This document shows positions 16,866 to 39,393 of a DNA stretch of 44,325 nt, in pieces. The DNA is from a bacterium (GTDB taxonomy: Bacteria > Babelota > Babeliae > Babelales > RVW-14): the NCBI GenBank assembly GCA_043822925.1, contig JBDRBF010000034.1, positions 1 to 44,325 of the forward strand, read 5' to 3'. Both the position numbers and the translations under genes were made by a program. Under the pieces are notes generated by a model that was not told the DNA's origin, searched no databases, and saw nothing but the letters and a program-made list of their open reading frames with translations. The first letter of the stretch is position 1, and each line of letters opens with the position of its first letter.

Positions 16866-17897
16866 TTAAGAAATAACCTTACAAGTATTTAGTTTATGTA
16901 AGACCGTTTTGACTTGATCAATTTTGTCGTTGCTTGCAACAATAAGTACGTCATCAGTTTCAATTATGCAAAGATTATTGACGTCAATGCAGGCAATTAT
17001 TTTTTTGTTCGATTTTACTAAATTATTGTGTGCATTTAGTGATATTAGAGGGGATGCTTGGAGCGCGTATTTTGCTTGTATTTGTAAAAAAATATAGAGA
17101 TTTCCAACATCGTGCCATTCGAAGTCAGTCGGGAAAAGGGTTGTGTTCGTGCTTTTTTCCATGATCGCATAATCGACAGATTCGTTAGGTATTTGGTCAT
17201 AGGTGATTTTATTGTCCAGATATTGTTGCATAGCGTGAGTAATTTTTGGCGCAAGTGTCTTAAATTCTTCTATAAAAACTAATGCTTGTCCGGCAAAGAC
17301 GCCCATATTCCAAAACATATTGTTGTTGGTCATATATTTTTGAGCATCTTCTTTGTTTGGTTTTTCATGAAATTTTTTGATTTTATAGGGCTTGTTAATA
17401 ATAATTTTGGGGTCTGAGCTCTCTGCTTGAATATATCCGTAGTTTGTTGCCGGAAACGTTGGCATGAGGCCAAAAAGTGCTATTTTTTTGTGGCTACTTA
17501 CATATTCGATTGCTTTTTTGATACTTGTCAGAAAAGCTTCTGGCTCTGGTATAAAATGGTCGGCCGTGAGAAAAATAATTATAGCCTCGGGGTCTTTTTG
17601 GTAAATAGTGTGTGCTGCGAGTAAAATTGCAGGGCCGGTATTGCGCTTATCTGGTTCGGTTACAATAAAACCGATAGAGGCTGAGACATTTTTTTTGACG
17701 AGTGCTTCTTGAAGTGTATTTGTGATTATAAAAATATTTTCTTTAAGTGCTATTGGGCTTATGCGTTTTATTGTGCTTTGCAGGAGTGATTCCCCATTTA
17801 AAAAGGGGATGAGTTGCTTGGGCATTTCTGGTGTGCTGAGTGGCCATAGGCGTTCTCCTGAGCCTCCGGCTAAGATTCCAAAATACACGTTGTGCAT
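16866..17897 (-). CDS. manC: Mannose-1-phosphate guanylyltransferase (no PMI domain)
   Basis: ILAGGSGERLWPLS, PKQ, EPDKRNTGPAI, ADHFI, YGYI, FHEKP, WNMG, SVDYAIMEK, WHDVG. Confidence 0.92.
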   Translation of the reverse strand: MHNVYFGILAGGSGERLWPLSTPEMPKQLIPFLNGESLLQSTIKRISPIALKENIFIITNTLQEALVKKNVSASIGFIVTEPDKRNTGPAILLAAHTIYQKDPEAIIIFLTADHFIPEPEAFLTSIKKAIEYVSSHKKIALFGLMPTFPATNYGYIQAESSDPKIIINKPYKIKKFHEKPNKEDAQKYMTNNNMFWNMGVFAGQALVFIEEFKTLAPKITHAMQQYLDNKITYDQIPNESVDYAIMEKSTNTTLFPTDFEWHDVGNLYIFLQIQAKYALQASPLISLNAHNNLVKSNKKIIACIDVNNLCIIETDDVLIVASNDKIDQVKTVLHKLNTCKVIS

Positions 17898-17923
17898 AAT
17901 GTTTCCCTCTTTTTTATGTGCGG

Positions 17924-19276: not shown

Positions 19277-21231
19277 GTGAGTGACCATATATTTTGAAGG
19301 ACCCATTTTTTTACGGCTAAGCTGGCTTCAGATTCACTTAAGTATTTGTGCATGTTTTGTGCAACAGGCGTGAAGTTTTGTCCAGAGTTATAGCTTGCCT
19401 GTTTAAAATATTCAGAAAAATATTTGCCTGAAGAAAACCAACGTTGTGTTGGTGCTGCAAATCCAATTTTTTTCCGGTTAATAATCTCGTCAGGCAGGAT
19501 GCCTATGGCTGCTTTTTTGAGTAAATATTTTGTAATATTATTTTTGAATTTAAGATTTATTGGTACATTCATCATAAATTCGACAAGCTTATGGTCAAGA
19601 AATGGCACACGGCCTTCTATACTTGTTGCCATGGTCATTTTATCTGCACGCATGAGCAAAAGTTCTGGCAGGCGCTGCTTGAGTTCTAGGTAAAGCATTT
19701 GTTGAGAAAAAGACGCATGTGCGTCATGCTTTTTTATATTATTTAGGTGATAGTTTACGATAGCGTAACTATCGAATTCTTGTTTTAATCCCGGGTATAT
19801 TTTTTCTATTATTGGGTCGTGCATATTTTGGGTAAGTTTAGACGGGGTAAAAATAGGTTCTTGTAAAATTTTTTGTTTTTGGTGTTCGTTAAATGCAATA
19901 GAGCCGGTCCAGAACAAGTTTCTATCACGCGCCCAGTTATCTATTATTTCGAGGCGTCCCAATTTTGTTGGGGCAATTTGGGCAGCCAAATTACTGATCG
20001 CGCGTCGCGCGATAGTGGGTATGATCTTTTGTGATGGGTTCCAGATTTTTTTATGAAAATTGTGATAGCGTGCATATGTATCGTAGCCAAAAAAGAGTTC
20101 GTCAGCCCCTTCTCCAATTTGTGCGACCGTCACACCGCTTTCTCGGGCTAACTTGGCGACATAATAGAAGGGGATGCAAACACAATCAGCAAGAGGCTCG
20201 TCCAAGAAATATGTCATGTTTTTATAAAACTCGAACGCTTCTTTTTCAGAGATAATAATTTCATGGTGATCTGTATCAAAATGTTTGGCGACAAGGCGGG
20301 CCCATTTGAGTTCGTTATGCTCTGGGCCGTCTGAGAATGCTACGGTAAATGTTTTAACTTTGCCGATAAATTTAGACATGAGCGCAACGTTTAAACTCGA
20401 ATCGATGCCGCCGGATAAAAATGTGCCGAATGGAACGTCTGACGCCATTTGTTGATGGACAGATTCTTCAAGAAGTTTTTTTATATTTTCGACGCAAAAA
20501 TCTTCACGCATAAAATCTTTTTGTTCAGCCTGAGATATCGTTTTGAGTGGCGTGTACCATTCGTGAAACGATATTTTTCTATTGGTATCTAGTTTCATGT
20601 AAAAACCGGCAGGTAATTTATATACTTGTTCAAATATTGTGTATGGCGCCGGCGTGACCATGAACGTGAGATAATGATATAACGCTTGTTGTGATATATT
20701 CTTTTTATTCCAATCAAGTGCCCAGAGAGCTTTAATTTCTGATGCAAACGAGAGCATATTATTTTGGATAGAAAAATATGCCGGTTTAATACCAATTCTA
20801 TCTCTGAATATAAATAACTCGTTTTTATGTCTGTCAAAAATAACACCGGCAAACATGCCTTCTATGTGTTTTAAACAGTCTATGCCCCATTCTTTGTAGG
20901 CATAGAGTAAGCTTTCTGTGTCACAGTTTGAGAAAAAGTTATATCCAAGAGATATAAGTTCTTGGCGTAATTTAGGGTGATTATAAATTTCGCCATTATA
21001 ACTAATTACAACTGTTTGTTCTTTATCGATCATGGGCTGCTTGCCAGCTGAACTTAAATCTATAATAGCCAGGCGTCTATTTGCGATACCTATATTATGT
21101 TGTTCAGATATCCAGGTTCCAAAATCATCTGGTCCCCTGTGTGTAATTTTTTCATGCATATTAGTTAAAAGTTTGATGGGATCTTGCGGGAAGTTTTTAC
21201 CAAGAGAACAAAAGCCTGTAAAGCCACACAT
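19273..21231 (-). CDS. asnB: Asparagine synthase (glutamine-hydrolysing) family amidotransferase
   Basis: MCG N-terminus, HRGPD, RRLAIIDL, NGEIYN, FLSGGIDSS, GEGADELFFGY, RVPFLD. Confidence 0.93.
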   Translation of the reverse strand: MCGFTGFCSLGKNFPQDPIKLLTNMHEKITHRGPDDFGTWISEQHNIGIANRRLAIIDLSSAGKQPMIDKEQTVVISYNGEIYNHPKLRQELISLGYNFFSNCDTESLLYAYKEWGIDCLKHIEGMFAGVIFDRHKNELFIFRDRIGIKPAYFSIQNNMLSFASEIKALWALDWNKKNISQQALYHYLTFMVTPAPYTIFEQVYKLPAGFYMKLDTNRKISFHEWYTPLKTISQAEQKDFMREDFCVENIKKLLEESVHQQMASDVPFGTFLSGGIDSSLNVALMSKFIGKVKTFTVAFSDGPEHNELKWARLVAKHFDTDHHEIIISEKEAFEFYKNMTYFLDEPLADCVCIPFYYVAKLARESGVTVAQIGEGADELFFGYDTYARYHNFHKKIWNPSQKIIPTIARRAISNLAAQIAPTKLGRLEIIDNWARDRNLFWTGSIAFNEHQKQKILQEPIFTPSKLTQNMHDPIIEKIYPGLKQEFDSYAIVNYHLNNIKKHDAHASFSQQMLYLELKQRLPELLLMRADKMTMATSIEGRVPFLDHKLVEFMMNVPINLKFKNNITKYLLKKAAIGILPDEIINRKKIGFAAPTQRWFSSGKYFSEYFKQASYNSGQNFTPVAQNMHKYLSESEASLAVKKWVLQNIWSLT

Positions 21232-21259
21232 GCGTATTCTTTCGTTTTTTAGACATGTT

Positions 21260-22735
21260 TTAAGGCTTGGATCCTGAAACGAGTTCAGGATGACAAGGCG
21301 TAGTTTGCGGGGGCGTTTTATATTTTGTTTGTTTTGCTTCGTGTTCTATTATATTTTTTGTTGCTTCCCATGCAGAGAGCATTGCGCTGTCCATATTGTT
21401 ATATCTGTGCATGCCATTGCGTCCGACAAGTTGTAAGTTTGGAAACTGTTTTATGTAATCAAGAACTATAGAAAGGGGCGTTTGGTAACCCATGTCATAT
21501 ACGGGGTAAGCTTCAGGAATGCGCATAATCATGCCATCGCGTACATCTGTTGCTTTGGCTAGCCCAATTTGTTCAAGTTCTTGTTTGCCCAGTTCTACTA
21601 ATTCTTGATCTGTTTTTTCCCAGATGCCCTGACCGGCCCATTCGAAATATTCAAGACTGAGTGCCGTTTTGTTTTCATGATTGACCATTTTTATAGAAAA
21701 GTTATTCATGTTGCCCAGGCGAACCATTTTTAAATTTTTTTCATGTATGTATAACCAATGGTCTGGGCAGATATTAGCTTTTTCGACAATTAAGTTGATC
21801 GTAATAAGCCCACGATAAAAGAGTTTATTAGCAGCTTCTATAACATGTGTTGGTGGCAATGGGTCCATTGATTTGACGAGTGTTTTGAGCGTCATAGAAG
21901 ATATAAAGTAATCGCCTGAATACGTTGTGAGCTTTTGAACCTGTGGTTTCGATGTTTGGGCGTCTGTTTTTTTTGCGCACAGCGCCGTTATTTTTTTGCC
22001 GTCGTGTTCAATAGAAACGATTTCTTCTTGGAGCCAGATCTTTGTATCGTCACAGGTGTTAAAATTATGTGCTACTTTTTCCCAAAGAGTTCCTGAGCCG
22101 TTTACGGGGTAGAAAAATTCGTCACAAATTGTTCGTGGGGCATTTTTTTTGAACCATTTTCCAAAGAATGCATAAAAAATTGCTTGAGATAGTGAAAAGT
22201 TTTTAATGCGCTGTGCAGACCAATCAGCAGAAATTCTTGAGCAGCTTATACCCCAAAGTTTTTCACTATATGTTTTAAAGAAAATACTAAATAAACGATG
22301 TCCAAATCTATTGGTTACCCAGTCTTGGAGCGATTGTGCTTGTTTGATGGGAAACAGTCTGATTTTTATATAACTGAGCACGCATCTAAAAGATTCAAAG
22401 ATAGAGAGGCCTAAAAGCGCATTTATCGGTTCAAGGGGATACAAAAAAAAGTGTTTTTTATAAAAAATACGGGTAAATCGTTTAAGATGTAAAAAATCTT
22501 TTTGCATAAGATCTTTCCACCAATTTTCAACTTTTTTTGAGCTTGTAATGTAGTGGTGTGGTCCGATATCAAATAAGCATTTTTTGTATTCAGTTGTTCG
22601 CGCCAGCCCCCCAATAACCGGTTCTCTTTCGATAATATCGACGGAAAATTTTTTGCTATTAGCGAGTTCTAGTCCTGCTGTTAGGCCGGCAGGTCCCGCG
22701 CCCATAATTACTACACGTTTTTTTGAATTATTCAT
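21260..22735 (-). CDS. FAD-dependent oxidoreductase (HemY/UDP-galactopyranose-mutase-like family found in glycan loci)
   Basis: GAGPAGL Rossmann motif, GGLART, DIGPH, AYPVY, GRNGMHRYNNMD. Confidence 0.85.
   Translation of the reverse strand: MNNSKKRVVIMGAGPAGLTAGLELANSKKFSVDIIEREPVIGGLARTTEYKKCLFDIGPHHYITSSKKVENWWKDLMQKDFLHLKRFTRIFYKKHFFLYPLEPINALLGLSIFESFRCVLSYIKIRLFPIKQAQSLQDWVTNRFGHRLFSIFFKTYSEKLWGISCSRISADWSAQRIKNFSLSQAIFYAFFGKWFKKNAPRTICDEFFYPVNGSGTLWEKVAHNFNTCDDTKIWLQEEIVSIEHDGKKITALCAKKTDAQTSKPQVQKLTTYSGDYFISSMTLKTLVKSMDPLPPTHVIEAANKLFYRGLITINLIVEKANICPDHWLYIHEKNLKMVRLGNMNNFSIKMVNHENKTALSLEYFEWAGQGIWEKTDQELVELGKQELEQIGLAKATDVRDGMIMRIPEAYPVYDMGYQTPLSIVLDYIKQFPNLQLVGRNGMHRYNNMDSAMLSAWEATKNIIEHEAKQTKYKTPPQTTPCHPELVSGSKP
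21269..21295. repeat. Short palindromic element inside a CDS 3' end (encodes CHPELVSGS)
   Basis: atcctgaa-acgag-ttcaggat stem followed by gaca. Confidence 0.7.
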
Positions 22736-22768
22736 GTTTCTTCTCCTTTTTTAGGCCCCAGGCTTAAA

Positions 22769-24158
22769 TCATAGTTGATTGATAATCTGGGTCCAGAACT
22801 TACATGATACGATAATTAAAAAAGGTTCAAAGGGCAACCTTAATCTTGCAAAGCCGCAAGCACAACTGAGTATGACAAATATTGTGATAAATGGGACAAT
22901 TTTCATGACGATAGCCATGTATTGTTTATTTAAGAGAGAATTTATTAAGAACCCAAAAAAACCAAGCAATAATAAAAGAAAATATAAAAGTTCGAAGTAT
23001 ATAAAAAAAATAATTTTTTTATTTTGTACGTCGGGAAACAAGAATCTCGAGAGTAAATCTTTTATGCTTCTTTTCTCTTGATAGTCAGGTAGTTTGCCAT
23101 TTGAATCTATAACGAGTAACTCTGAAGAATATAAAGAGAATATTGTTTTAATCATGTTTTGTGTTACGTGTTTTAGTGTTTCTATAAAATTTTGAGACAT
23201 ATATTTGTAGGCTGTTTTTTCTGCGATTAAATTTGTTTCTATTTCATAGAGTGGGCGTTTAAATTCTTGTTTTTTTTTGTCTTGAGCTTTTGAGAATTCG
23301 CTATTTATTTGTTTTTTTGCTTCTTGATAAGAAATATGTTTATTATGCATGGCCAGACGCGTTGCAGAGTGATTAAGAAAGTGCACGCCGGTGAGTGTGT
23401 GCAGGAAGAGATATCCAGTAAGCAAGTAATTACGTACAATCCAAATGCCGGCAATATTTAGCCAGCCTGTGCTTAATGCTAATATGTGTGTGATTTTTTT
23501 GTGATACGTGTTCATAGAGAATAAGAGAAATATTATTGCGAGTATAAGAATAAAGTTTCCAACAGGTCTAATAAGCGTTACGATGCCTAAAAAAAGTCCT
23601 GAAATAAATAGTGTGCTCTGTGTATGTTTTGTGTTTTGTTTTTCTCGCTTTTCAAAAAAAAAAATTAAAATTTCTAAAAAATAAGCATAGAAATAGTATA
23701 AAAAAAATCAAAAAAAGTATCTCAGTCATAATAAGTCCGGAAAATATAAGAAATCCGGGATTTATGCTTGCGGCAAGCGCTGCGCATTGGGCTAGAATTA
23801 TAGATTCAGGAAAAAGTATGAGCGCAAGAGCAAAAATAAGTATGGGCACGAGTGATGCGAGAATTATTTGTATCCATAGTGCGTTATGTGGGGTTGTGCC
23901 AAAAAATTTATAGCAAAGCGCAAGATATATTGGATATCCGGGGAGCCGGTAAAATTGCGGCGAGCCGTCAGGATTTGAGATACTGTTTTTTTGTGTGATA
24001 GTAACAGCAAGATTGTGATAGTGTCCTGAATCAAATATAAGCATGCATGGGTTTTTGTTTTCAAAAACCATGAAAAAACAGGCTCGTAATATAAAAGAAA
24101 AAATAAAGAGCATTATAATAAAATATTTTTTTTGTTTTATCTGTGTAAATACGTGCAT
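22769..24158 (-). pseudogene. ArnT/PMT_2-like GT-C glycosyltransferase split by a frameshift in a T11 tract
   Basis: ORF 23652-24158 matches the N-half and the frame of 22769-23653 the C-half (LIRPVG, GFARLRLPFEP) of the neighbouring paralog. A11 at 23654-23664; losing one base gives a 462-aa protein. Confidence 0.85.
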
Positions 24159-24159
24159 T

Positions 24160-25761
24160 TTACAAGCTTGTGTCTGTTTGTTTAAAAAGTTTGCTCCAGC
24201 CAGCCAGAGAGATAATTATTAAGAGTGGCTCTATTGGCAGGCGCATGCGGGCATAGCCTCCAGCTAGAGATATAATAATAAATATTCCCATAAATGGGAG
24301 TGTTTTCAGTAAGACGCACCAGTTATTAGGGTTGCGCGTAAGCATGAATAGTAAAAAACCAAGTAATATAAATAAGAAAAGTGTTATTTCTAAAAATATA
24401 ATTACTTTTAAATAGATATTTTTTGTTTGAGGGAATAAGTAGCGTTTAAAGAGTGACCAGAAACTTCTGTTTTTTTCAAAATAATTAATTTCTTGTCGTC
24501 CGGAATCTAGATATAGTAGCTCGGCAGAATATAAAGAAAAACATGTTCTGAACATATCTGTTGCCCAATTTTTGAGTGTAATAAGTGGCTGTGCTTTAAA
24601 GTATATTATGGCTACATGTTCTCGTAATTTGCATAATTCTATTTCGTTTAGGGGCCTGTGTTTTTTTATTTTTTCTTGGAGCTCAAGTCGCGCGACTTCT
24701 TGGGTTAAAATTTCTCGTGCATGTTCGTACGATGTATTATGTACATGCATAGCAACGCGTGCTGCTGATAGATGCAAAAAGTGTCCGCCAGGGAGTGTGT
24801 GAAAAAAAATATGTCCTAAAAAAATATAATTTCTGATGAGCCATAGTAATACGGGGATAAGCCAACCAAGAAATAGTATAAAACTTTTGCCTATTTTATT
24901 AGACCAATTGTTTTTTGAAACGATAAGTACTAGAAGTGCTGTAATAATAAGATAGGGTCCGACCGGGCGAACGAGTGATGCTAGTCCAAGAGTTAATCCG
25001 GCAAAAAGCATATACCGAAACGCTCGTTGGGTTTGTGTGCTTTCGAACGTAATATATGTTTTGTATTGTTCGATAAATTTTTCGCCAAAAAGTTGGTCAT
25101 ATAATTTAATAAATTCGGGGCCGGTTTCTTCATCATCCAGAAAAAATGGGGGATAGGTGTAAACGGGAAATTTTTTGCCTGTTTCTGGATCTTTTGTGTT
25201 ACAGAAAAACAGGTGTGTGCTGGAAAAAAACAAAATAAAAAAGATTAAGAGCAAAAAAATAAAGAGCGTTTCAGTCATAAAAAATCCTGCGTATAGGACA
25301 AGGCCCAGGTGAAAGCAACTATAAAGTGAAGCGAGTTTGGCTAAATATAAATTATTGGGAAAGAGTGCACGCGAGAGTAAGAAAATTAATAATGGGATAA
25401 GAGCTGCTAGAATTACTTGCATCCAAAGTGCGTTTTTTTTGTCTTGTTCTTGGTTTTTGGTTTTGTCGGCGCCAATAAGTTTATTGGTGTCAAAAGTTTT
25501 ATACGTGCCAAAAATTTTATAATAGATCGCAATAAAAGCAGAGTACCCGGGTAGTCGGTAAAAGTTTGGTTTGCCGTCTGGATGTGAGAATCCGTGTCCT
25601 TGGGCTACTTGTATGGCTGTAACGTGATACGTGTTTGAGTCTACTTGCCAAAAGTTATTATTTTTGCCTAAATAAAATCCAAAAACTAATGCCCTTATTA
25701 AGAGTGCGCTTAAAAAAATAAAGAATAGAAAGTTTTTTTCTTTTTTTATAATTTCGATCAT
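24160..25761 (-). CDS. ArnT/PMT_2-like (GT-C) membrane glycosyltransferase
   Basis: VDSNTYH, FYRLPGY, MTETLF, LVRPVG, GYARMRLPIEP; many TM helices. Confidence 0.8.
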   Translation of the reverse strand: MIEIIKKEKNFLFFIFLSALLIRALVFGFYLGKNNNFWQVDSNTYHVTAIQVAQGHGFSHPDGKPNFYRLPGYSAFIAIYYKIFGTYKTFDTNKLIGADKTKNQEQDKKNALWMQVILAALIPLLIFLLSRALFPNNLYLAKLASLYSCFHLGLVLYAGFFMTETLFIFLLLIFFILFFSSTHLFFCNTKDPETGKKFPVYTYPPFFLDDEETGPEFIKLYDQLFGEKFIEQYKTYITFESTQTQRAFRYMLFAGLTLGLASLVRPVGPYLIITALLVLIVSKNNWSNKIGKSFILFLGWLIPVLLWLIRNYIFLGHIFFHTLPGGHFLHLSAARVAMHVHNTSYEHAREILTQEVARLELQEKIKKHRPLNEIELCKLREHVAIIYFKAQPLITLKNWATDMFRTCFSLYSAELLYLDSGRQEINYFEKNRSFWSLFKRYLFPQTKNIYLKVIIFLEITLFLFILLGFLLFMLTRNPNNWCVLLKTLPFMGIFIIISLAGGYARMRLPIEPLLIIISLAGWSKLFKQTDTSL

Positions 25762-25779
25762 AAAGCTCTCTTTCTCTTT

Positions 25780-26778
25780 TTAGTAACGATTATTTATTTG
25801 AGATTTTTTTTCCCAGGCAAGGGCACTGGTTAGCATGGCCTCAAGTGTTGAGTGCTTGGTGTGCCAGTTTAATATTTTTTGAGCTTTGTTGGCGTCAGCT
25901 TGTAAGATGGCAACGTCTCCTGGTCGGCGTTTACGGTGTACGATATGTGCTTTCTTGCTGCATATTTTTTCGGCTGCTTGAATTACTTGTGCGACCGTGT
26001 ATCCGTGTCCAGATCCTAAATTAAAAACGCCTGACTGGTTCCCATTTTTTAAGTAGTTTAGTGCTGCGATGTGCGCGTGAGCTATGTCGATTACGTGTAC
26101 ATAATCACGCATGCAGGTGCCGTCTGGCGTATTATAGTCTGTCCCAAAAATAGTAAATATTTTTTCTGAAATAATTGCACGTAATAATAATGGGATAATA
26201 TGTGTTTCTGGGTTATGCTGTTCGCCTAAATTTTGTTCTGGCATGGCGCCGGCAGCATTAAAATATCGTAACGATACAAATTTGAAATCATATGCGAGTG
26301 CATAATCTTGTAGCGCAAATTCGACGATTAATTTGTTTTTTCCGTAAGGGCTTGTTGGGTTTGTTGGATGTGTTTCTTCTAGGGGGAGCTTTTGTGGCTC
26401 GCCGTATACGGCGCAACTGGACGAGAAAATAAAATTTTTAATATTATGCTGAAGCATGCTCTCTAAGAGTATGAGCACTTTTTGTACGTTATTTTCGTAG
26501 AAATCGCAGGGTCTTTTGACTGACTCCCCCACTTCGATAAATGCAGCAAAATGCATGACGGTACTAATATTATAGGTGCTAAAAATATGGGCAAGCACGT
26601 TAGTATCTGCGAAGTCAGCCTGGATAAATTTGGCCCACTGGTGGGGGAATGTTTGTTTATGAATAAGTTTATCGATAATAATGACGTGATATTTTTGTTG
26701 GGCGAGCAGGTATGCTGTATGTGAGCCTATGTATCCAGCTCCTCCAAGTACTAATATCGTTTCTTTTTTTGGGGTCAC
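25780..26778 (-). CDS. galE: UDP-glucose 4-epimerase family protein
   Basis: GGAGYIGSH, HFAAFIEVGESV, FSSSCAVYG, YGKNK, LRYFNAAGA, TPDGTCMRDYVHV, RRPGD. Confidence 0.9.
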   Translation of the reverse strand: MTPKKETILVLGGAGYIGSHTAYLLAQQKYHVIIIDKLIHKQTFPHQWAKFIQADFADTNVLAHIFSTYNISTVMHFAAFIEVGESVKRPCDFYENNVQKVLILLESMLQHNIKNFIFSSSCAVYGEPQKLPLEETHPTNPTSPYGKNKLIVEFALQDYALAYDFKFVSLRYFNAAGAMPEQNLGEQHNPETHIIPLLLRAIISEKIFTIFGTDYNTPDGTCMRDYVHVIDIAHAHIAALNYLKNGNQSGVFNLGSGHGYTVAQVIQAAEKICSKKAHIVHRKRRPGDVAILQADANKAQKILNWHTKHSTLEAMLTSALAWEKKSQINNRY

Positions 26779-30800: not shown

Positions 30801-32489
30801 TTAATCAAGAATCATAAATTTGTTTTTTACGTAGTCCCACGTAATAAATATGAGTTTTTTGTTTAAGTGTTTTTTATCGAGTACGATGCTTATTTCATAG
30901 ATGTGACCGGTGTTTTTATCTGTTTTATGTACTGTTTTGTTTCCCATTGGCATTTCGCCTCCGCCCCAGCTATCCCACCATAGTTTTTGCGGATCAAGAG
31001 ATTTGAGTTTGAAACCGTTTTCTATTTGTTCGATTTTTAGGTGATTTTTTTCATTGGTTGCTTGAGTGCGGGCAAAGAGGCTTAAATCAAAATAAATGGG
31101 TTGTGATTCGTTCAGCCCACACATCCATAGTTGTTGGGCTAGCGCTGTACTAAATGTTGATCGTGGTATGCCTATAAAGCATAGTGGGCCTGAGTTTATG
31201 TTTTTGTGTGCAAGTAATTCGGAGATTACATCTGCTTTATCTTTTAAAAAGAGGCCTCGTGTTTTTAATCTGCTTGAAACAAAAAAAATGTTGCCACCCA
31301 GGATTACCAGAGCAATTAAAGTCGTAATTTTTTTAAGTTTAATATGATGAGCATAATCAGTGTTTTTGAAAAGTAACAAAATCATGAATATGTATAATGG
31401 CAGTGAAAAATAAAAATATCGCAATGTGTAGTGTTTTAATATTGCAGGCCACAAAAATAAAATTGTGCTTACAAAAAAGAAAATTATAATTTTTTTCTGT
31501 TTGTTTTTATAAAACAGAAAGAGCAAAAGACTGAGTACTAATAAAACAAGAGAACCTTTGAGTATTTGATTGCCCGATGGAATAAATGAAATATTACAGA
31601 TATCGACTAAGAAACTTATTAAATCTGCCGTGCGTGTTTTTAGGCTAAATATGAGATTGTTTATGCTTGTTGAGACCGTTAGGCTTGTTTGGTTGTTGTT
31701 TTTTATGCACGCCATAAATCTTGCGATTAAGAAGAATATGGTGACGCTCCACAAAAATATGGTTTTTTTAAAAAAAGAAAAAAAGCTTTTGCCTAAATAA
31801 GTGGGTAATTGTAATGGTTTTCTTAAGAAATCGTATATTAAAAAACATGAAGTAATAAAGAGTGGGAAAACAATTGTAAATTCAAATAAAAAAACAGCTA
31901 TTGCATATAAGCTGCATGATAAAAGTAAGTATGCGATTTTATTTTTTTTGAGCGAATAAAAAAATAAGATAGTTGCTAAGATCAGAAAGTTAAGGCTTGT
32001 TGTATATGGTTGTGCAGCAATCCAGCTCATCCACCCCCATAAGCTTATATGATAGGCGAAAAACAAAGCTCCCCATATAGCCCAAAAATACGAAATAAAA
32101 AACAAAAACAGGTTAAACAAAAGAGCTGCATTAAGAGCATGAAAGAAGATCATAATAAGTACGTATCCATAGGGCCATGCGCCAAATAATGTATATTGAA
32201 TTCCAAAGAATACAAGCGTGATTGGGCGATAAAAACCGCTCATAGATCCAATAAAGTTGTGTTGAGGGGCACTGTAGTTTGACGGGAGATAGAGGCCGTA
32301 TTGATCACTTATTTTAAATAAATTAATAAAGCTTTGTAGGTTTATAAATCGAGATCCTAGAATTACGCCGCAGTCATCAATGTCAAACCCCCAGTTTGAG
32401 CTTAAGATGCTCAGGGGTATAAAAACGCATAAAAAAATGGCGATAGAATATAAAAAGTTTTTGTGTTTTTCGGTAAAAGAATAAAGCAT
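30801..32489 (-). CDS. GT-C-like membrane glycosyltransferase (DD/YRP family, paralog 1)
   Basis: NWGFDIDD, FYRPI, FHALN, FAYH, RYFY; many TM; C-terminal SLDP..LW...ITWDY domain. Confidence 0.72.
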   Translation of the reverse strand: MLYSFTEKHKNFLYSIAIFLCVFIPLSILSSNWGFDIDDCGVILGSRFINLQSFINLFKISDQYGLYLPSNYSAPQHNFIGSMSGFYRPITLVFFGIQYTLFGAWPYGYVLIMIFFHALNAALLFNLFLFFISYFWAIWGALFFAYHISLWGWMSWIAAQPYTTSLNFLILATILFFYSLKKNKIAYLLLSCSLYAIAVFLFEFTIVFPLFITSCFLIYDFLRKPLQLPTYLGKSFFSFFKKTIFLWSVTIFFLIARFMACIKNNNQTSLTVSTSINNLIFSLKTRTADLISFLVDICNISFIPSGNQILKGSLVLLVLSLLLFLFYKNKQKKIIIFFFVSTILFLWPAILKHYTLRYFYFSLPLYIFMILLLFKNTDYAHHIKLKKITTLIALVILGGNIFFVSSRLKTRGLFLKDKADVISELLAHKNINSGPLCFIGIPRSTFSTALAQQLWMCGLNESQPIYFDLSLFARTQATNEKNHLKIEQIENGFKLKSLDPQKLWWDSWGGGEMPMGNKTVHKTDKNTGHIYEISIVLDKKHLNKKLIFITWDYVKNKFMILD

Positions 32490-32492
32490 TCT

Positions 32493-33227
32493 TTATCTTT
32501 CTTTTTTGTAGATACCATAAATTGTTAGCCCAAATGGGAATTTTATTCTTTTAGAAATGAGCCAATTTTCACATCTAAGAAGTGTATAAAAGATATCGTT
32601 TAAGATTTTTGGAAATTGGTGAAAACTCGATGGGCCTGAATCGTATGTTAATTTTTTTTGTGTTTTTTTTGGCAAAATTAAGAAGAAGGCTGCTGGTAAA
32701 AACAGGAAAAAAAACCAGGAGCCGAGTGTTTGCTTTTTAAAATCTTTTAAAAGTTTTTGTATGTGAGTTTTATTGTATCTGCGTTGGTGTCCTAAAATAG
32801 TGTCTCGATTACTGTACAAGGTGTTATATGCTGGAACGGTAAAAGCAAAGTGCCCGTTTGGTTTAAGTACTCGGTGAATCTCGGTGATTACTTTTTGGTC
32901 TTGTTCTATATGCTCAAGAACATCAAAAGCAACGACTAAGTCAAAGCTTTGATTCTCATAGGGGAGGTTGCAGGCATCGCCGATTTTTTTTTCAACAACT
33001 AAATAATCAGGTATTAAATCGAGTGTTTTTTGGTCTATATCAAGAGCGTGTACCTGTCCGAATTTTTTTATAGATGCAATATCTTCGCCGGTTCCAGCAC
33101 CGATATCCAAAATTTTTAGATTTTGTGTGTGATTTAATTTTTTTAATAAAACTTCGATAAATTGAGCTTTTGCTTTAAACCAAAAGCTTTCTTGTATGGC
33201 GCCTGCCTGAAAATCTTTGTAGTCCAC
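32493..33227 (-). CDS. Class I SAM-dependent methyltransferase
   Basis: ILDIGAGTG, FDVLEHI, LKPNG, TVPAY, GHQRRY; GTG start at 33227 with AAGGAG RBS. Confidence 0.88.
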   Translation of the reverse strand: MDYKDFQAGAIQESFWFKAKAQFIEVLLKKLNHTQNLKILDIGAGTGEDIASIKKFGQVHALDIDQKTLDLIPDYLVVEKKIGDACNLPYENQSFDLVVAFDVLEHIEQDQKVITEIHRVLKPNGHFAFTVPAYNTLYSNRDTILGHQRRYNKTHIQKLLKDFKKQTLGSWFFFLFLPAAFFLILPKKTQKKLTYDSGPSSFHQFPKILNDIFYTLLRCENWLISKRIKFPFGLTIYGIYKKER

Positions 33228-33297
33228 GAAGATCTCCTTCTCTTTTTTTTTGTAGCGTATAGCATTAAAAAAATAATTAATATAGGGAGTATGCAAT

Positions 33298-34323
33298 ATG
33301 AAGAATAATCTGTTATCAGTTATTATCCCAGTATTTAATGAACAAGAAAATATTTTAGAATTATATCAAGAGCTTAATATCGTTTTGAAAAAACTAACGG
33401 TTTTTTCTGATTATGAGCTTATTGTTGTGAACGATGGCAGTATCGATGCTTCGCTTAGTATCTTAAAAAAAATGGCGGTGCATGATGTCCGTGTCAAAAT
33501 AGTTTCTTTTACGCGTAATTTTGGTCATGAATCTGCAACGTACGCTGGAATAATGCATGCATGTGGCGATGCTGTTGTACTTATTGATGCAGATCGTCAA
33601 GATCCGCCAGAGCTTATTCTTGAGTTTGAAAAAGAATTTGCCAATGGCTATCACATTGTGTACGGTCAGCGCGAAAAACGCTTAAATGAGACGTTTGTAA
33701 AAAAATTAACGTCAAAAGCTTTTTATCCAACGTTCAGGTTTTTAACAAAAGTAGATATACCGCGTGATGTTGGTGATTTTTGTTTGCTGAGCCGTAAAGC
33801 TATCGATTGTATTAAGCAAATGCCCGAGAAAACGATTTTTATTCGCGGTCTTATTTATTGGTCTGGTTTATCAAAAAAGGCTGTATTTTTTATTCGCAGG
33901 AGCCGGGGTGGGGGCACGTCAAAATACAATTATAGAAAACTGACGATTTTTGCGCTTGAAAATATTATTTCGTTTTCGACTGTTCCCATTTACTTTATCT
34001 TAGCATTTTCGTTATTTATTATAGCCGCATGTGTTATTGGTACGATTAGTGCTTTTTTGATGCATATGTTTGGATATGTTGTTATGACAGGTTGGACGTC
34101 ACTTATCATGTGCATGCTTTTTTTGTTTGCATGTACGTTATTTTTCTTGGGCATTATTGGGCTTTATGTCGGTAAAATTTTTCAGGAAGTTAAGAGTAGG
34201 CCTGTTTTTCTTGTTAACGAAAAAATTAATTTTGAGTTGGCAGGTGTGCAGCCTGCTCATAAGACGACAATACAAGCCCAAGAACCTGGACAGGTAATTT
34301 TGGGGCAAGAAAATAGATTATAA
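33298..34323 (+). CDS. GtrB/ArnC-like GT2 polyprenyl-phosphate glycosyltransferase
   Basis: SVIIPVFNE, VNDGS.D, RNFGH, IDADRQDPPE, GDFCL, two C-terminal TM helices, EVKSRP. Confidence 0.9.
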   Translation: MKNNLLSVIIPVFNEQENILELYQELNIVLKKLTVFSDYELIVVNDGSIDASLSILKKMAVHDVRVKIVSFTRNFGHESATYAGIMHACGDAVVLIDADRQDPPELILEFEKEFANGYHIVYGQREKRLNETFVKKLTSKAFYPTFRFLTKVDIPRDVGDFCLLSRKAIDCIKQMPEKTIFIRGLIYWSGLSKKAVFFIRRSRGGGTSKYNYRKLTIFALENIISFSTVPIYFILAFSLFIIAACVIGTISAFLMHMFGYVVMTGWTSLIMCMLFLFACTLFFLGIIGLYVGKIFQEVKSRPVFLVNEKINFELAGVQPAHKTTIQAQEPGQVILGQENRL

Positions 34324-34346
34324 AAAGATAAAAAAATAAAAATAAC

Positions 34347-36002
34347 ATGAGAAACTTTCTCTTTTTTAATACCTGGTTACAACATAAAAAAATAATTTTG
34401 GCACTTACTCTTTTTGTGTTGGTTGTTTGTTTTCTTGGGCTTCCGTATACAAATTGGGGTTTTAAGACTGACGATTTTGGAAATATTTTTCATTGCAAGA
34501 TATACGGCTGGCAAACAATAAAGCAATTTTTTACTGAAGGGAACATGGAGAGGTTTAATTACCCCTCAAATGGTGGTGCAACATCGCAATCGTTTTTTTG
34601 TGGGCTTTATCGTCCGATCTCTTTTATTTATTATTTTATACAATATTATTTTTTTGGAGCGTCACCATATGGGTATTTTCTTGTAACTATTATTTTTCAT
34701 GCACTTAATAGTGTCTTATTATTTTATTTGTTTACGCATATATTTTCTCTTTTGTGGGCATTTTTAGCTGCACTTTTATTCGCTTTTCACCCCAGTCTTT
34801 ATAATTGGCTTGGTTGGGTGAGCGCGCAAACCTATTTTATTGAACTGTTTGTTTTATTACTTTTGATTCTTGCTTTGAAAAAGTATGTCGATACACGCAA
34901 TATATTATTGTATGTTCTGTCCTGTTTTTTGTTTTTGATAAATCTTTTTCTTAAAGAAGCGACTGTTTTTTTGCCTGCATGGGTTATGTTTGCTGTTTAT
35001 TTGTATATAAAACAAACAGCCGTGATTAACAAGCATCCTGTTAAATTGAGTATAGTGATTTCTCTTGGCTACTGGTTTGTGAGTATATTTTACTGTCTGG
35101 TCCGGCTTTCTATGTTTCCCCTTAATTCAAATACGGGAACGCTTACGTTTGAGCCAACACTTGTATCGTTTGTTGCGCGCATGAAGTCTAGAGTGTTTGA
35201 CTTTGTAACATATGTGACAGACATGATTGGCATATCTTGGATTTCTGGTGATCACCGGGTTATTAAGGGCTTTATTGTTGCATCTTTATTTAGTTTATTA
35301 ATTATTTGTTTTATAAAAAGTTCGAAAAAATTACAGATGAGCTTTTGCTTTTTAAGCATGCTTTTGTTTGGTTGGCCTGCTCTTTTAATGCACTATCAGC
35401 CTCGTTATATTTATATGTCTATCCCCTTTTTTATAGTTTTTGTTTTTTTGTCTTTTGAAACTATTCGGCAGGGGGCTCATGTTTGTTTTGTGCAGCATTT
35501 AAAACCTGTTTTTATTGTTTTTGTATTTTTATTTGTTGCGTTTAACGTGACGTTTTTAACGAGTAAACTTAGGCAGCGTGAAGCTGTTTTTGGATCTGTT
35601 ACTCAGGCTTTTAAAGAGCTACTTGTTCATGATGAGACAAAAAATAGAACTCTTTATTTTATGGGGTTACCAACGCAGTGGTTTGCTATGGGAACTGCTC
35701 AAGCTATTTGGTTGCTGCGTGGTGATAGTTCTTGCCCGGTGAATCAAGATGGTCCTGTCGTTGGACTAGTAGGTTATGATAGTTATTTGCAAGTGCCTAT
35801 TTTAGATGGTGATTATCTTGATATTAAAATGTATGATAATGGCTTTGAGTTTATATCTCTTGATCCTGCTCAGCTTTGGTTTGTTCGTGATAAACAAGTT
35901 TGTTCTAAAATATTTATCGAGATTCCCGAAAAATATCGAGAACAAGATCCCGTGTATATTACGTGGGACTATCATAATGCAAGATTTAAAATTTTAAAAT
36001 AA
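34347..36002 (+). CDS. GT-C-like membrane glycosyltransferase (DD/YRP family, paralog 2)
   Basis: NWGFKTDD, LYRPI, FHALN, LFAFHP, KE, PRYIY, SLDPAQLW, ITWDY. Confidence 0.75.
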   Translation: MRNFLFFNTWLQHKKIILALTLFVLVVCFLGLPYTNWGFKTDDFGNIFHCKIYGWQTIKQFFTEGNMERFNYPSNGGATSQSFFCGLYRPISFIYYFIQYYFFGASPYGYFLVTIIFHALNSVLLFYLFTHIFSLLWAFLAALLFAFHPSLYNWLGWVSAQTYFIELFVLLLLILALKKYVDTRNILLYVLSCFLFLINLFLKEATVFLPAWVMFAVYLYIKQTAVINKHPVKLSIVISLGYWFVSIFYCLVRLSMFPLNSNTGTLTFEPTLVSFVARMKSRVFDFVTYVTDMIGISWISGDHRVIKGFIVASLFSLLIICFIKSSKKLQMSFCFLSMLLFGWPALLMHYQPRYIYMSIPFFIVFVFLSFETIRQGAHVCFVQHLKPVFIVFVFLFVAFNVTFLTSKLRQREAVFGSVTQAFKELLVHDETKNRTLYFMGLPTQWFAMGTAQAIWLLRGDSSCPVNQDGPVVGLVGYDSYLQVPILDGDYLDIKMYDNGFEFISLDPAQLWFVRDKQVCSKIFIEIPEKYREQDPVYITWDYHNARFKILK

Positions 36003-36063
36003 TAGAGCGTGCAAGCATATACGTGAAATGCGTGTACAAAAATATGTGATATAGGGGGCGAGT

Positions 36064-37827
36064 GTGCTAAAAAATTATGTCACGAGTCATAAGCGTCTAT
36101 TTATATCTCTTATTATTTTTGCAGGTGTATTTTGTTTGCTGGGGTTGCCATTTACTCATTGGTGGTTTTATGGCGCAGACGACTTTCATGCGTTATTTTT
36201 AGCGTATAAAACAAAGACCTGGAAAGAGTTGCTCTATTTTTTTTATAATGGGAATGTGGGGCAGGGAGCTGGTCCATCAAATTTTGTTCTGTCTCTTGAA
36301 CGTACGTCGTTTTTTAGCACATATTATCGACCTATTTATCTTGTTTTACATGCGCTTGAATATTGGTTTTTTGGGCTAAATGCGTATTGCTTTTTTCTTG
36401 TCTCTGTTTTTTTTCACGCGTGTAATACTGTTATTTTATTTAATATATTTTTATTATTTACTGGGTGCTGGGCTGCTGGTTTAACGGCTCTTATGTTCGC
36501 GTTTCACCCACAAATAGCATATCGTTTTGGTGCACTTGTAAATTTACACTACTATGTGAACGTTTTTCTTTTTTTACTCATGTTTCTCTCGTTTAAAAAA
36601 TATTTAGATACTCGAAAAGTACTTTTTTATGTGCTTGCCTGTTTGTTTTTTTGTTTATCTCTTTTTACACGGGAAACTACTATTGTATTACCTGCGCTTA
36701 TTATTCTGGGCATGTATTTATATACTAATAGTTACGAGTCTTACTCTTTTGGGCATTTTTTTAGGCAGCTTTGGCTCAATATAAAACTAACTTTTGGTTT
36801 TTGGCTTATTATGTTTTCTTTTCTTGGACTGCGCTTATTTTTGTATCCATTAAATTTTTTGCCCAAATTTTCGTCTGAGCACAAAAGCTTTTTTGTGTTT
36901 TGTAAATCGTTTATACGTACGCTTATGTCAAAATTTCCTGAATTTCAGGTGTTTGTGTATGATGCCCTGAGTTTATCTTGGTTGCCGTGGGGACATAAGC
37001 TTTTTCGGGGATTTCTTGTGAGCTTGTTACTTTTAATTTTAAGTTATTTTTTTATCAAAAATACAAAAAAGATATACGTTTTATATTTTTTGTTTTGTAC
37101 AATCTTGATGCTTTGGCCGGCGTTTATTGGGCCGTATAGCCCGCGGTACTTTTATGAAGCGTACCCGTTTATTTTAATCGCTTTTATTGTGCTTTTTCGC
37201 TTTTACAAAAACGGGTATAAAACTTGTTTTAGTTTTTTTATTATTAAGAAAATAGTTTTGCTCGTGTTTGGTTTGGTAATTATGGGTTTTGCTTTATTTT
37301 GTTTTGATAGTTTTGCTCGACGAGAAAAAAAGATGCACATTATGTTTGACGCTGTGTATGAGTTAGTAAAAGATGCACGGGTGTCTGGTAGGGCACTTTG
37401 TTTTTTAAGTTGGCCGCTTGAGAGCTTTGGCGAGCAAAATGCACCTATATTTTGGGTTTTATTTAATGATCCTGCACATCTTGTCTATTTTGATTCTGCA
37501 GGAGCTATTATGCAGGCTGACTCAAATATTGTTACGCCTACGCGTTGGGGTAATGTGATAAGTGATTTTTATGATCAAAATTATGTGACTATCTCACCGG
37601 TTAAAAATGGTTTTCGGTTCGTGTCTTTAAATTCACATAAAGCTTTTTTTACACTTGATAATGGCGGGTATACGGTAGGTCAAAAGATTATTAACAAAAC
37701 AGAATTGGTCGATAATCAAAAAGTTGTAACAGACTTTACGTTAATTATCGATCGACAGTATCTTGATAAAAATCTTGTGTATATTTCTTGGGATTATAAG
37801 CTTAAAAAATTTATAGTTATATCTTAG
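36064..37827 (+). CDS. GT-C-like membrane glycosyltransferase (DD/YRP family, paralog 3)
   Basis: WWFYGADD, YYRPI, FHACN, MFAFHP, RE, PRYFY, ISWDY; GTG start after GGGGG RBS. Confidence 0.75.
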   Translation: MLKNYVTSHKRLFISLIIFAGVFCLLGLPFTHWWFYGADDFHALFLAYKTKTWKELLYFFYNGNVGQGAGPSNFVLSLERTSFFSTYYRPIYLVLHALEYWFFGLNAYCFFLVSVFFHACNTVILFNIFLLFTGCWAAGLTALMFAFHPQIAYRFGALVNLHYYVNVFLFLLMFLSFKKYLDTRKVLFYVLACLFFCLSLFTRETTIVLPALIILGMYLYTNSYESYSFGHFFRQLWLNIKLTFGFWLIMFSFLGLRLFLYPLNFLPKFSSEHKSFFVFCKSFIRTLMSKFPEFQVFVYDALSLSWLPWGHKLFRGFLVSLLLLILSYFFIKNTKKIYVLYFLFCTILMLWPAFIGPYSPRYFYEAYPFILIAFIVLFRFYKNGYKTCFSFFIIKKIVLLVFGLVIMGFALFCFDSFARREKKMHIMFDAVYELVKDARVSGRALCFLSWPLESFGEQNAPIFWVLFNDPAHLVYFDSAGAIMQADSNIVTPTRWGNVISDFYDQNYVTISPVKNGFRFVSLNSHKAFFTLDNGGYTVGQKIINKTELVDNQKVVTDFTLIIDRQYLDKNLVYISWDYKLKKFIVIS

Positions 37828-38420
37828 TCCTGTTTTTTATGTTCAAATTTTGTAATATTTGTTTGTCTTATTTTCTTAAGATTTATTATGTAATCATTCA
37901 GAAGTTTTTCAATAATTAGACGTTCTTCGATGTGTTTAAGAGAATAGCAGGAGAGTGTAAGTATGCTTTTACTTATGAATGGGTATGGCATATTGAGTTT
38001 TGTGCAGTAGCTTAAAATAAAAATTAAATCATCGATTCGATCAATTGTGATTTGTTCGATATTTTTTGTTTTTAGATGGTTCAAAAGCGATTCGACGCCG
38101 CTATGGTTATGCTTGAAAATATAGAGAATAAAATCGCCTATCCATCCATAGGTTATATGGGAATTGATGGCTGATTTTTCCCATTCAGTATATGGTGAAA
38201 AGCCTTGATTTAATTCAATATCTTTTTCAGATAAGAATCGTCCATATATGGCATCGAGTATTTTTTTTAGGTTTTGTCGCTCTGAGACAATTTGGATCTT
38301 TATTTGATTTTGTTCGATATTGTCACGGTCAAATGGTTTCATGCTTTTAAGCATTGGTGCTGTAAGTAATATGCTGGATATTAATAGGGTATTGCGAACG
38401 AGTAAGTTACGTGTGATCAT
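37824..38420 (-). CDS. Hypothetical exported protein
   Basis: 198-aa ORF with signal-peptide-like N-terminus; no recognised motif. Confidence 0.6.
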   Translation of the reverse strand: MITRNLLVRNTLLISSILLTAPMLKSMKPFDRDNIEQNQIKIQIVSERQNLKKILDAIYGRFLSEKDIELNQGFSPYTEWEKSAINSHITYGWIGDFILYIFKHNHSGVESLLNHLKTKNIEQITIDRIDDLIFILSYCTKLNMPYPFISKSILTLSCYSLKHIEERLIIEKLLNDYIINLKKIRQTNITKFEHKKQD

Positions 38421-38457: not shown

Positions 38458-39393
38458 CTATTTAAATATCGTGCGAATTTTTCTTATAGCAGCTTTGTAT
38501 TTCCACTTTAATTGGATCGCAAATTCTTGAATTCTTGATTTGCTCTTTAAAATTTCAGGGTGCTTTGTTGCTATTTGGCTGTGTAGTTGCTGAAAATTTA
38601 GCCCCGTATTCGTTTGATCATCGAAGTGTTTTTCAACAATTTTTCCTAAATTATTTAGTTTTGGATCATAAAATATTCCGGTCCATTTAGCCAGGAAATT
38701 TTTTAAATCTTGTTTAAATTTCGCATAATTTGTATTTCGTATCGTAATATTAGCGTGTGGGTAGTGTTCTATGTATGAATCTGGGGAGTCTATGACCTCA
38801 TATCCCTGATGCCATAGTTTTAAACACAAATCACCGTCGGCGTTATAAAAGAAAAAGTTTTCTTCGTCGATATAGCCAACTTCTTGGAGTGCTTTATTTA
38901 GGTATAAACCATGATTTACGTAGAGCTTATCGCCGAGCGTGTATCCAACATGATAGTTTTGTTCTTTTGACCAATCTCGAAAGTAAAAAGCTACAGCGCC
39001 AATTCTTTTGTTTTGTTTGATTTGCGTTAGTGCATGTTTGTAGCCATTAAGAATGGCGTTTGGAATTACTAAACAATCATCGCTGAGCATGCAGATATAT
39101 TCGCCTTGGGCTGCTTTGAACGCCAGGTTCATGAAGTAGCCCCATGACCTGCGCTCGATCTCTTGTCCGTTCCATGTGCCTCGATTGTGCTGGATTATTG
39201 TTATTATATCTTTTTGTGTGTATAACCATTCGAGTGTTCCGTCGTTTGACCCGCCGTCGACGATTATTATTTCTGTTTTTTGTTTTAGTTCTTGGTTTAT
39301 ACGCGTTAGTTCTTCTCTGGCGCTGTGTATTGTTAGTTTTAAAAAACTTAATCGATTATACGAGCCGAGAATTACTGAAATTATTGGTTTCAT
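38458..39393 (-). CDS. Glycosyltransferase family 2
   Basis: ISVILGSYNR, IIVDGGSNDGT, LSDD, VGYIDE, DGDLC. Confidence 0.88.
   Translation of the reverse strand: MKPIISVILGSYNRLSFLKLTIHSAREELTRINQELKQKTEIIIVDGGSNDGTLEWLYTQKDIITIIQHNRGTWNGQEIERRSWGYFMNLAFKAAQGEYICMLSDDCLVIPNAILNGYKHALTQIKQNKRIGAVAFYFRDWSKEQNYHVGYTLGDKLYVNHGLYLNKALQEVGYIDEENFFFYNADGDLCLKLWHQGYEVIDSPDSYIEHYPHANITIRNTNYAKFKQDLKNFLAKWTGIFYDPKLNNLGKIVEKHFDDQTNTGLNFQQLHSQIATKHPEILKSKSRIQEFAIQLKWKYKAAIRKIRTIFK

Follow-up and report, generated by a model that had tools for sequence, protein, structure and literature searches.

The 44,325-nt contig JBDRBF010000034.1 of assembly GCA_043822925.1, from a member of the Dependentiae and referred to here as the window, contains a five-gene cassette with the appearance of a periplasmic glycosylation module. 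It encodes three paralogous membrane proteins that resemble GT-C glycosyltransferases of the TMTC type (GT-C a, b and c), a GtrB-like polyprenyl-phosphate sugar synthase of glycosyltransferase family 2 (hereafter GT2), and a class I S-adenosylmethionine (SAM) methyltransferase, MT1 (Table 1). A first-pass annotation made from the sequence alone had proposed this layout, and the coordinates of all five open reading frames (ORFs) are exactly as it gave them. The three GT-Cs (551–587 aa) have pairwise identities of 29–32%, and a profile built from a 66-sequence family alignment detects them with E-values of 1e-156 to 1e-229 (1.3e-158 for GT-C a and 6.5e-156 for GT-C c), so that their likeness is not a matter of chance. 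The motifs that had been listed as common to them, W.F..DD, YRPI, FHA.N..LLF, FA(F/Y)H and WPA....RY.Y, are all invariant columns in the alignment of the three, as is NGF...SL...WDY...F at the C-terminus. The width of the divergent region depends on where MT1 begins: the longest ORF has a TTG start at 33296, 1 bp from the ATG of GT2, and the 70-bp gap of the earlier annotation is obtained only if translation begins at a GTG near 33227, the following in-frame start codon, 69 nt downstream. The GTG start yields a protein of 244 aa and is probably the true one, since this length fits MT1 orthologues that adjoin GT2 in other genomes, four of five of which measure 236–242 aa (lengths from the ORF caller). 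The assembly as a whole amounts to 1.52 Mb in 86 contigs and is 92% complete, and proteins closely related to GT-C b come from Candidatus Dependentiae, Babeliales or TM6, where they are either unnamed or called "hypothetical".

Table 1 Genes and features of the cassette, its glycosyltransferase neighbour and the sister group of the GT-C family. Positions refer to the window unless a locus handle is given.
Feature	Position	Strand	Description
GT-C paralog a	30801–32489	−	562 aa; TMTC-like; DD at residues 38–39; C-terminal WDY domain
MT1, class I SAM methyltransferase	32493–33296	−	Longest ORF; hydrophobic C-terminal part; Methyltransf_11, E 8.6e-21
Divergent intergenic region	33228–33297		70 bp if MT1 starts at GTG; 1 bp if at TTG
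GtrB-like polyprenyl-phosphate sugar synthase (GT2)	33298–34323	+	341 aa; GT2 Pfam match, E 3.3e-28
GT-C paralog b	34347–36002	+	551 aa; D42 and D43; C-terminal domain ~404–551
GT-C paralog c	36064–37827	+	587 aa; GTG start
GT2b, soluble GT2	38458–39393	−	Glycos_transf_2, E 2e-13; neighbour of the GT-C array
Sister-group proteins	L052:1027–2700, L053:790–2709, L054:554–2467		One weak PMT_2 match, otherwise no Pfam domain

By sequence, the three proteins are hard to place. None has a Pfam or NCBIfam match, PMT_2 is recognised weakly in 3 of the 66 family members (best E 7e-5), and searches of PDB sequences with 3-sequence and 66-sequence family profiles gave no useful match, to ArnT or otherwise, the threshold for the larger profile being E ≤ 10. 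The sole PDB sequence match in these profile searches, to PARP9 at E 1.4, was taken as chance. PF02366 and MIR have no match in the GT-C proteins, and none of the 66 family sequences reaches E ≤ 1 against YfhO (PF09586). Structure prediction gives a clear assignment. GT-C b was modelled with AlphaFold2 on the 66-sequence alignment (predicted local distance difference test, pLDDT, 94.3; predicted template modelling score 0.93), and all 22 Foldseek matches to this model at E ≤ 1e-3 are GT-C enzymes, among them PglB (4e-6) and ArnT (6e-5), as well as STT3, AglB and DPY19. In an exhaustive search with VIA-align, rows 1–20 are chains with the GT-C fold, of which 17 are glycosyltransferases; the other three are entries for one glycosylphosphatidylinositol-transamidase subunit, a GT-C-like protein. 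The last of these rows is EmbB (row 20, Z 8.7), and the score drops to 5.3 in row 21. On the strength of the predicted model, the GT-C fold claimed for GT-C b can be regarded as established. The top rows are effectively tied (STT3B, Z 17.6; PglB, 17.4; Pmt2, 17.2; AglB and Pmt4, both 17.0; ArnT, 16.9) and do not name a subfamily, with ArnT giving the longest coverage (397 aligned residues, spanning 12–551 of the model). The model contains no inserted beta-trefoil.

A word-based search with GT-C b returned 63 close relatives and then eight weak matches outside the family, seven of which are bacterial tetratricopeptide repeat (TPR) proteins. Two of these are named protein O-mannosyl-transferase by their source, and two others carry PF13231 or PF08409. 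When the family was aligned with the seven proteins in hhalign, residues 23–220 matched with a probability of 99.1% (E 1.4e-18). Kinship with TMTC-type enzymes, as proposed earlier, is thus supported by sequence via these bacterial TPR-bearing relatives and via published motifs; the comparison was made through these two routes rather than directly with animal TMTC sequences. The published TMTC motif set includes DD, SHKSYRP, RxD, KE(T/Q)xxT, DW and ERxxY (PMC7801869), of which the family has four in common, DD, KE..T and R..Y together with the YRP part of SHKSYRP. Within the 66-sequence alignment, the first Asp of the pair (D42) is present in 64 of 64 non-gap rows and the second (D43) in 61 of 64; in YRP, Y88 is conserved in 56 of 65 rows and R89 and P90 in 65 of 65, with the preceding SHKS replaced by a consensus F-x-G-L. 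The KE..T motif is represented by K203 (55/66, plus five with Arg), E204 (66/66) and T206 (47/66), the Thr being displaced by one or two positions relative to the motif as published. ERxxY is present as PRYxY, with Pro in place of the Glu (R353 and Y354 66/66; Y356 65/66). RxD has given way to QxY (Q161 in 64/66, followed by Y163), and the DW motif is not conserved. Other residues present in 66 of 66 rows are R253, W343, P344, H118 and H148. Pfam recognises no TPR in GT-C a, b or c, nor in any member of the 66-sequence family set.

Reading the helices of the GT-C b model on the TMTC scheme, we infer 11 transmembrane helices (TM1–TM11); the TM1–TM2 and TM7–TM8 loops are the long ones, and PRYxY is in the TM9–TM10 loop. 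The mean numbers of Lys plus Arg in the short loops are 2.0, 0.26, 2.48, 1.41, 2.30 and 0.89 for those predicted to be cytoplasmic and 0.06, 0.91 and 1.08 for those predicted to be periplasmic, which by the positive-inside rule supports a cytoplasmic N-terminus. That orientation would put the DD pair, E204, R353 and the C-terminal domain all on the periplasmic side, so that the acidic pair assigned to the first external loop in the first-pass annotation is both conserved and predicted to lie where it was placed. A sister group of Dependentiae proteins (557–639 aa; Table 1) resembles the family over the N-terminal 260 residues only (E 1e-38 to 1e-45). A TPR-bearing ancestor within the same genomes was considered but dropped, as none of the three sister-group proteins tested has a TPR Pfam match.

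The donor synthase, GT2, aligns over its full length with the GtrB protein sll0501 in the PDB (residues 6–313 to 28–333; 240 bits, E 2.4e-70), scores 115 bits against ArnC, and is far from the archaeal dolichol-phosphate-mannose synthase (67 bits); of the two enzyme types named for this role in the first-pass annotation, GtrB and DPM1, the first is by far the closer. Its best NCBIfam model is PgfS, with 233 bits against a cut-off of 500, and the ArnC model at 129 bits is also under its cut-off. Because GT2 is the sole GtrB-like synthase found in the assembly, it may also feed other GT-C-like proteins of the window. Taken together, it is very probable that the GtrB-like enzyme makes a polyprenyl-phosphate sugar that is used by the GT-C transferases in the periplasm. 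As to the possible sugar methylation proposed for MT1, the protein is identified as a SAM methyltransferase, and a sugar as its substrate is pure conjecture. SAM is a cytoplasmic compound, and MT1 should thus act before export; from the conserved gene pair with GT2 we infer that it acts on the lipid-linked sugar.

In the mechanism that we propose, GT2 would load one nucleotide-sugar-derived sugar, most likely a hexose or an N-acetylhexosamine, onto undecaprenyl phosphate at the cytoplasmic face of the membrane, and the membrane-associated MT1 may methylate this lipid-linked sugar, or a precursor, before export. Some flippase would then carry the donor across the membrane. On the periplasmic side, the three GT-C paralogs, as old and separately conserved lineages, would transfer the sugar to three positions or acceptors. 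Catalysis would rely on the Asp-Asp pair of the first periplasmic loop, with K203/E204 and R353/Y354/Y356 holding the phosphate and a metal. The likeliest acceptor would be the core of lipopolysaccharide (LPS), or a polysaccharide produced by the flanking genes, which encode GT2-family and GT4-family enzymes, an aminotransferase and a methyltransferase; we think protein a less likely target.

The C-terminal domain is about 150 residues long. Modelled alone on 32 sequences (pLDDT 94.9), it consists of a long helix followed by a mixed alpha/beta part and ends in the WDY motif. Against solved structures, the best VIA-align match has a Z of 3.7, with no chain at Z ≥ 5, and Foldseek gives none at E ≤ 1e-3; a missing match among solved structures is no proof of a novel fold. 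When longer proteins were searched with a profile of the domain (a word-limited search), six matches were obtained, all of them members of the GT-C family. A cluster of 550-aa GT-C proteins in the ESM Atlas, commonest in Acidobacteriota, with PMT_2 on 33% of its members and automatically named RgtA/B/C/D-like, has a predicted model that superimposes on the whole of GT-C b with a TM-score of 0.80 over 504 residues, the C-terminal part giving 0.70. The combination of GT-C and C-terminal domain may therefore also occur outside the Dependentiae, a comparison of predicted models that serves as a lead only. The suggestion that an unrecognised WDY domain takes the place of TPRs holds in so far as the domain has no Pfam family, no solved match and no TPRs, with the qualification that it may not be unique to this family. 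We also noted GT-C b-like orthologues of 488–519 aa with a shortened C-terminal domain (L027:6977–8536, L030:5692–7158 and L031:7291–8784). These match the domain profile only at positions 1–72 (1–86 for L027) and ~124–150, the middle of the WDY domain being deleted.

The family is narrowly distributed. At E ≤ 1e-30 its profile recovers 258 cluster representatives from a set of 1.84 billion proteins, and a motif scan that took one genome from each of 185,579 species found 16 loci, all in metagenome-assembled genomes titled Babeliales, Dependentiae, TM6, "bacterium" or "uncultured Pseudomonadota". Judged from these sequences, the family is found only in Dependentiae, where it is present in 23 of 151 genomes (E ≤ 1e-20), all in one order. 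Holder genomes have between one and six matches, mostly in tandem, some of which cover the N-terminal 260 residues only; arrays in other genomes reach five full-length copies. Among ten other genomes with usable context, six have MT1, GT2 and at least one GT-C adjacent to one another (G041, G143, G134, G150, G010 and G111), and in the remaining four the GT-C arrays lie beside orthologues of GT2b, GT4, a second methyltransferase (MT2) and DegT. In a quick tree of 37 copies, GT-C b falls in a clade of four rows and GT-C c in one of nine (Shimodaira–Hasegawa-like approximate likelihood ratio test support of 99 and 98, respectively), with GT-C a poorly placed. The b and c clades each span the families f1 and f12, which indicates that the paralogs are old. 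Literature searches on Dependentiae glycosyltransferases and on Babeliales lipopolysaccharide turned up no paper on this GT-C family among those listed.

An important question is what the GT-Cs glycosylate. Gene context and co-distribution with lipid A genes are the basis for considering a Gtr-type periplasmic module with an envelope glycan as acceptor, to which we give about an even chance. The arrays are surrounded by genes for GT2, GT4, DegT aminotransferase, methyltransferase, epimerase, PglD-like acetyltransferase and nucleotidyltransferase proteins, and further neighbours are split transketolase genes, an FkbM methyltransferase and an MsbA-like ABC transporter. An orthologue of GT2b adjoins the GT-C array or lies one ORF away in six of nine other genomes examined, and GT2b is probably part of the flanking glycan pathway rather than of the cassette proper. 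The window is itself largely an envelope and glycan region, with a secretin, phosphomannomutase and LptF/G, an operon running from ManC to GalE, then HisS and MurE, and the cassette, beyond which lie another GT2, a GT4, a methyltransferase and a DegT aminotransferase. LpxC, LpxB, KdtA and LptF/G are all present in the assembly. Across the same sample in which the GT-C family was counted, LpxC is present in 23 of 151 genomes: in 20 of the 23 family holders, the three without it being G111, G112 and G117, but in only three of 128 non-holders (G071, G088 and G106), the other 125 lacking it. Since G117 has KdtA and LpxB, 21 of the 23 holders can make lipid A.

The principal alternative is protein O-glycosylation, in which the GT-Cs would act like TMTC or PMT enzymes on Ser/Thr of secreted or envelope proteins, with the WDY domain replacing the TPRs as substrate binder and each paralog serving a different class of proteins. 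Animal TMTCs modify proteins (PMC7801869). The kinship with TPR proteins, the DD, YRP, KE..T and R..Y motifs and the same count of 11 helices all speak for such a role, as do the PgfS model heading the NCBIfam scores of GT2 and the two holder genomes without lipid A genes. However, the family has neither TPRs nor any other known protein-binding domain, RxD has become QxY and DW is not conserved. Its genes lie within polysaccharide-type clusters, and the neighbours of the GT-C arrays include no conserved gene for a candidate substrate. The Pgf parallel is also limited. PgfS and the GT-C PgfM1 glycosylate Ser/Thr-rich regions in Streptococcus mutans (10.1101/2024.05.05.592596), but the PgfS score of GT2 is less than half of the cut-off, and the GT-Cs of the Pgf system are of the YfhO type, which those of the window are not. 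We therefore regard protein O-glycosylation as possible but distinctly less likely than an envelope glycan as acceptor. What had been described as a "protein or surface glycosylation module" is borne out as glycosylation machinery, whereas a protein acceptor is less likely, the genes lying in polysaccharide-type clusters and the family tracking lineages that make lipid A.

A narrower possibility is that the cassette decorates lipid A and LPS core only, in the manner of ArnT or Rgt enzymes, with one ArnC-like GT2 supplying several GT-Cs that add the same sugar at different positions. Rhizobium RgtA–D, together with RgtE, are reported to be such a case, several GT-C paralogs acting on different LPS positions. 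ArnT is among the tied best structural matches and has the longest coverage, it resembles the cassette GT-Cs in length (~550 aa) and in having a periplasmic domain at the C-terminus, the look-alike cluster in the Atlas carries the RgtA/B/C/D-like name (TM-score 0.80; again only a lead), the genome encodes LpxC, KdtA, LpxB and LptF/G, with WaaL not found, and 21 of 23 holders can make lipid A. Yet G111 and G112 hold the family without LpxC, KdtA or LpxB, there is no similarity at the level of hidden Markov models to ArnT or any other solved GT-C, and GT2 is nearer to GtrB than to ArnC. Restriction to lipid A and core is thus quite improbable.

Several points also weigh against an envelope glycan as acceptor. 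G111 and G112 are 92–93% complete and lack LpxC, KdtA and LpxB, yet each has one GT-C copy, that of G111 lying with GT2 and methyltransferases in a glycan cluster; this means that lipid A or core is not an obligatory acceptor. The co-distribution with LpxC is phylogenetically confounded, both traits occurring in families f1, f7, f12, f15 and f16. Sequence does not tell a glycan acceptor from a protein one, the TPR-bearing GT-Cs that come nearest in sequence include some named protein O-mannosyltransferase, animal TMTCs act on proteins, and the substrate of MT1 is, as stated, conjectural. Finally, the way in which a polysaccharide acceptor would reach the periplasm is unexplained, because GtrA, Wzx, Wzy/WaaL and a WbaP-type transferase were not found. 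The absence of GtrA from the window, remarked on earlier, extends to the assembly, in which PF04138 has no match (a control search detected it in 8 of 14 reference genomes; other flippase families were not part of the search). Wzx (PF01943), Wzy/WaaL (PF04932) and a WbaP-type initiating transferase (PF02397) are likewise not found in this 92%-complete assembly, which does contain two Glycos_transf_4 genes, one presumably encoding MraY and the other a WecA-like enzyme. Yeoh et al. describe TM6 genomes as lacking waaL, with LPS genes spread unevenly across the phylum (PMC4776705).

A further explanation is stepwise polymerisation in the periplasm, in which the paralogs would not decorate a finished glycan but build one, much as mannan and arabinan are built by GT-C enzymes in mycobacteria; a single lipid-linked monosaccharide would be the donor, and each paralog would contribute the following residue or linkage. 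One synthase for three family members and for two or more further GT-C-like proteins in the window, arrays of up to five full-length copies, and the failure to find Wzx, Wzy/WaaL and WbaP-type genes would all suit such a scheme, but there is no direct evidence for it, the assembly is 92% complete, and the WecA-like Glycos_transf_4 protein and flanking cytoplasmic GT2 and GT4 enzymes leave room for a conventional lipid-linked oligosaccharide. We consider it highly improbable. Somewhat broader, and still unlikely, is the idea that LPS-bearing Dependentiae dropped Wzx, Wzy and WaaL, and that their surface glycan is built or finished outside by arrays of TPR-less, TMTC-related GT-Cs fed by one GtrB-like synthase with a sugar methylated before export. 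If this were true, the WDY domain would be a new acceptor-recognition module and the family would be the first among the bacterial branches of the TMTC lineage to which a role can be assigned.

Other parts of the window deserve mention. ManC, which had been proposed as a source of GDP-mannose for the cassette, belongs to a neighbouring operon 13 kb away, where it stands next to a different GT-C, and this proposal is not supported. That operon (16866–26778, minus strand) encodes ManC, a PMT_2-type GT-C of 460 aa, an AsnB amidotransferase, a protein resembling FAD amine oxidases or UDP-galactopyranose mutase, GT-C-like proteins and a GalE-type epimerase. Its PMT_2-type and 533-aa GT-C-like proteins match the cassette family with hhalign probabilities of only 4.7% and 4.4%, in comparisons with single-sequence templates that have low sensitivity. 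Adjacent to the 533-aa protein (24160–25761), ORFs of 168 and 248 aa at 22769–24158 (minus strand) resemble its residues 5–164 (38% identity, E 1e-34) and 284–528 (39% identity, E 2e-49), respectively; judging from the sequence, this is a tandem paralog without the middle 120 residues, split or decayed. Two adjacent paralogs of ~490–500 aa at 11415–12884 and 12943–14445 (minus strand), the "beta-helix proteins" of the first-pass annotation, have a high content of Asn, Ser and Thr and match no Pfam family; their hydrophobic N-terminal segment is signal-peptide-like by eye, and they are possible surface proteins. Between GT-C c and GT2b, an ORF of 198 aa (37824–38420, minus strand) overlaps the stop of GT-C c by 4 bp, has no family match and has no counterpart at that position in the other loci examined. 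Over the window (1–44325), GC skew is positive in all 2-kb bins (0.04 to 0.28) despite genes on both strands, and the GC content is 33–46%.

To our knowledge, a function has been assigned to TMTC-type GT-Cs only in animals, and many bacterial relatives have no assigned role. Conserved gene order here links a TPR-less branch with a defined donor synthase and with a methyltransferase, and this offers a concrete biochemical handle on these enzymes. Dependentiae are obligate intracellular parasites of protists with genomes of 1–1.8 Mb, and the presence of at least five GT-C-like genes in a 1.5-Mb genome bears on how such parasites make their surface. The family has neither a Pfam nor an NCBIfam model and merits one.

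Among known systems close to the cassette are TMTC1–4 (GT105) and their bacterial TPR relatives, with which the cassette GT-Cs have in common the GT-C fold and, in the case of the bacterial forms, a homologous N-terminal module. DD is in the first, KE..T in the third and R..Y in the fifth external loop, YRP is present, and beyond the 11 helices predicted for the family there is likewise a soluble, non-cytoplasmic domain. The cassette GT-Cs differ in having a 150-aa alpha/beta WDY domain instead of TPRs, in QxY for RxD and an unconserved DW, and in a synthase that is GtrB-like rather than DPM1-like. PMT enzymes (GT39) are set apart by their PMT and MIR domains, neither of which the cassette proteins have. 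ArnC/ArnT resembles the cassette in pairing one GT2 donor synthase with GT-Cs of ~550 aa that carry a periplasmic C-terminal domain, but ArnT (GT83) gives no sequence-level match beyond weak PMT_2 in 3 of 66 members, and two holders lack lipid A genes. The Pgf system of Streptococcus mutans (PgfS, PgfM1, PgfE and PgfM2) likewise combines a PgfS-like GT2 with more than one GT-C in a locus, acting extracytoplasmically; PgfM1 and PgfM2 belong to the YfhO family, however, whereas the cassette has no epimerase, occurs in a Gram-negative and has a PgfS score under the cut-off. O antigens are modified by three-component systems in which a GT2 synthase and a flippase work with a GT-C (PMC11127046). 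In the GtrA/GtrB/Gtr* systems of Shigella and Salmonella phages and in the GT136 pentofuranose systems, a GtrB-type synthase similarly lies beside GT-Cs in or near a glycan locus. The cassette departs from these in having three GT-Cs per synthase rather than one, together with a methyltransferase, and in an assembly where no GtrA or recognisable flippase, and no Wzx, Wzy or WaaL, was found. The kind of system is thus already known; the cassette adds to it an unnamed GT-C family of unsolved structure that is tied to a defined donor synthase.

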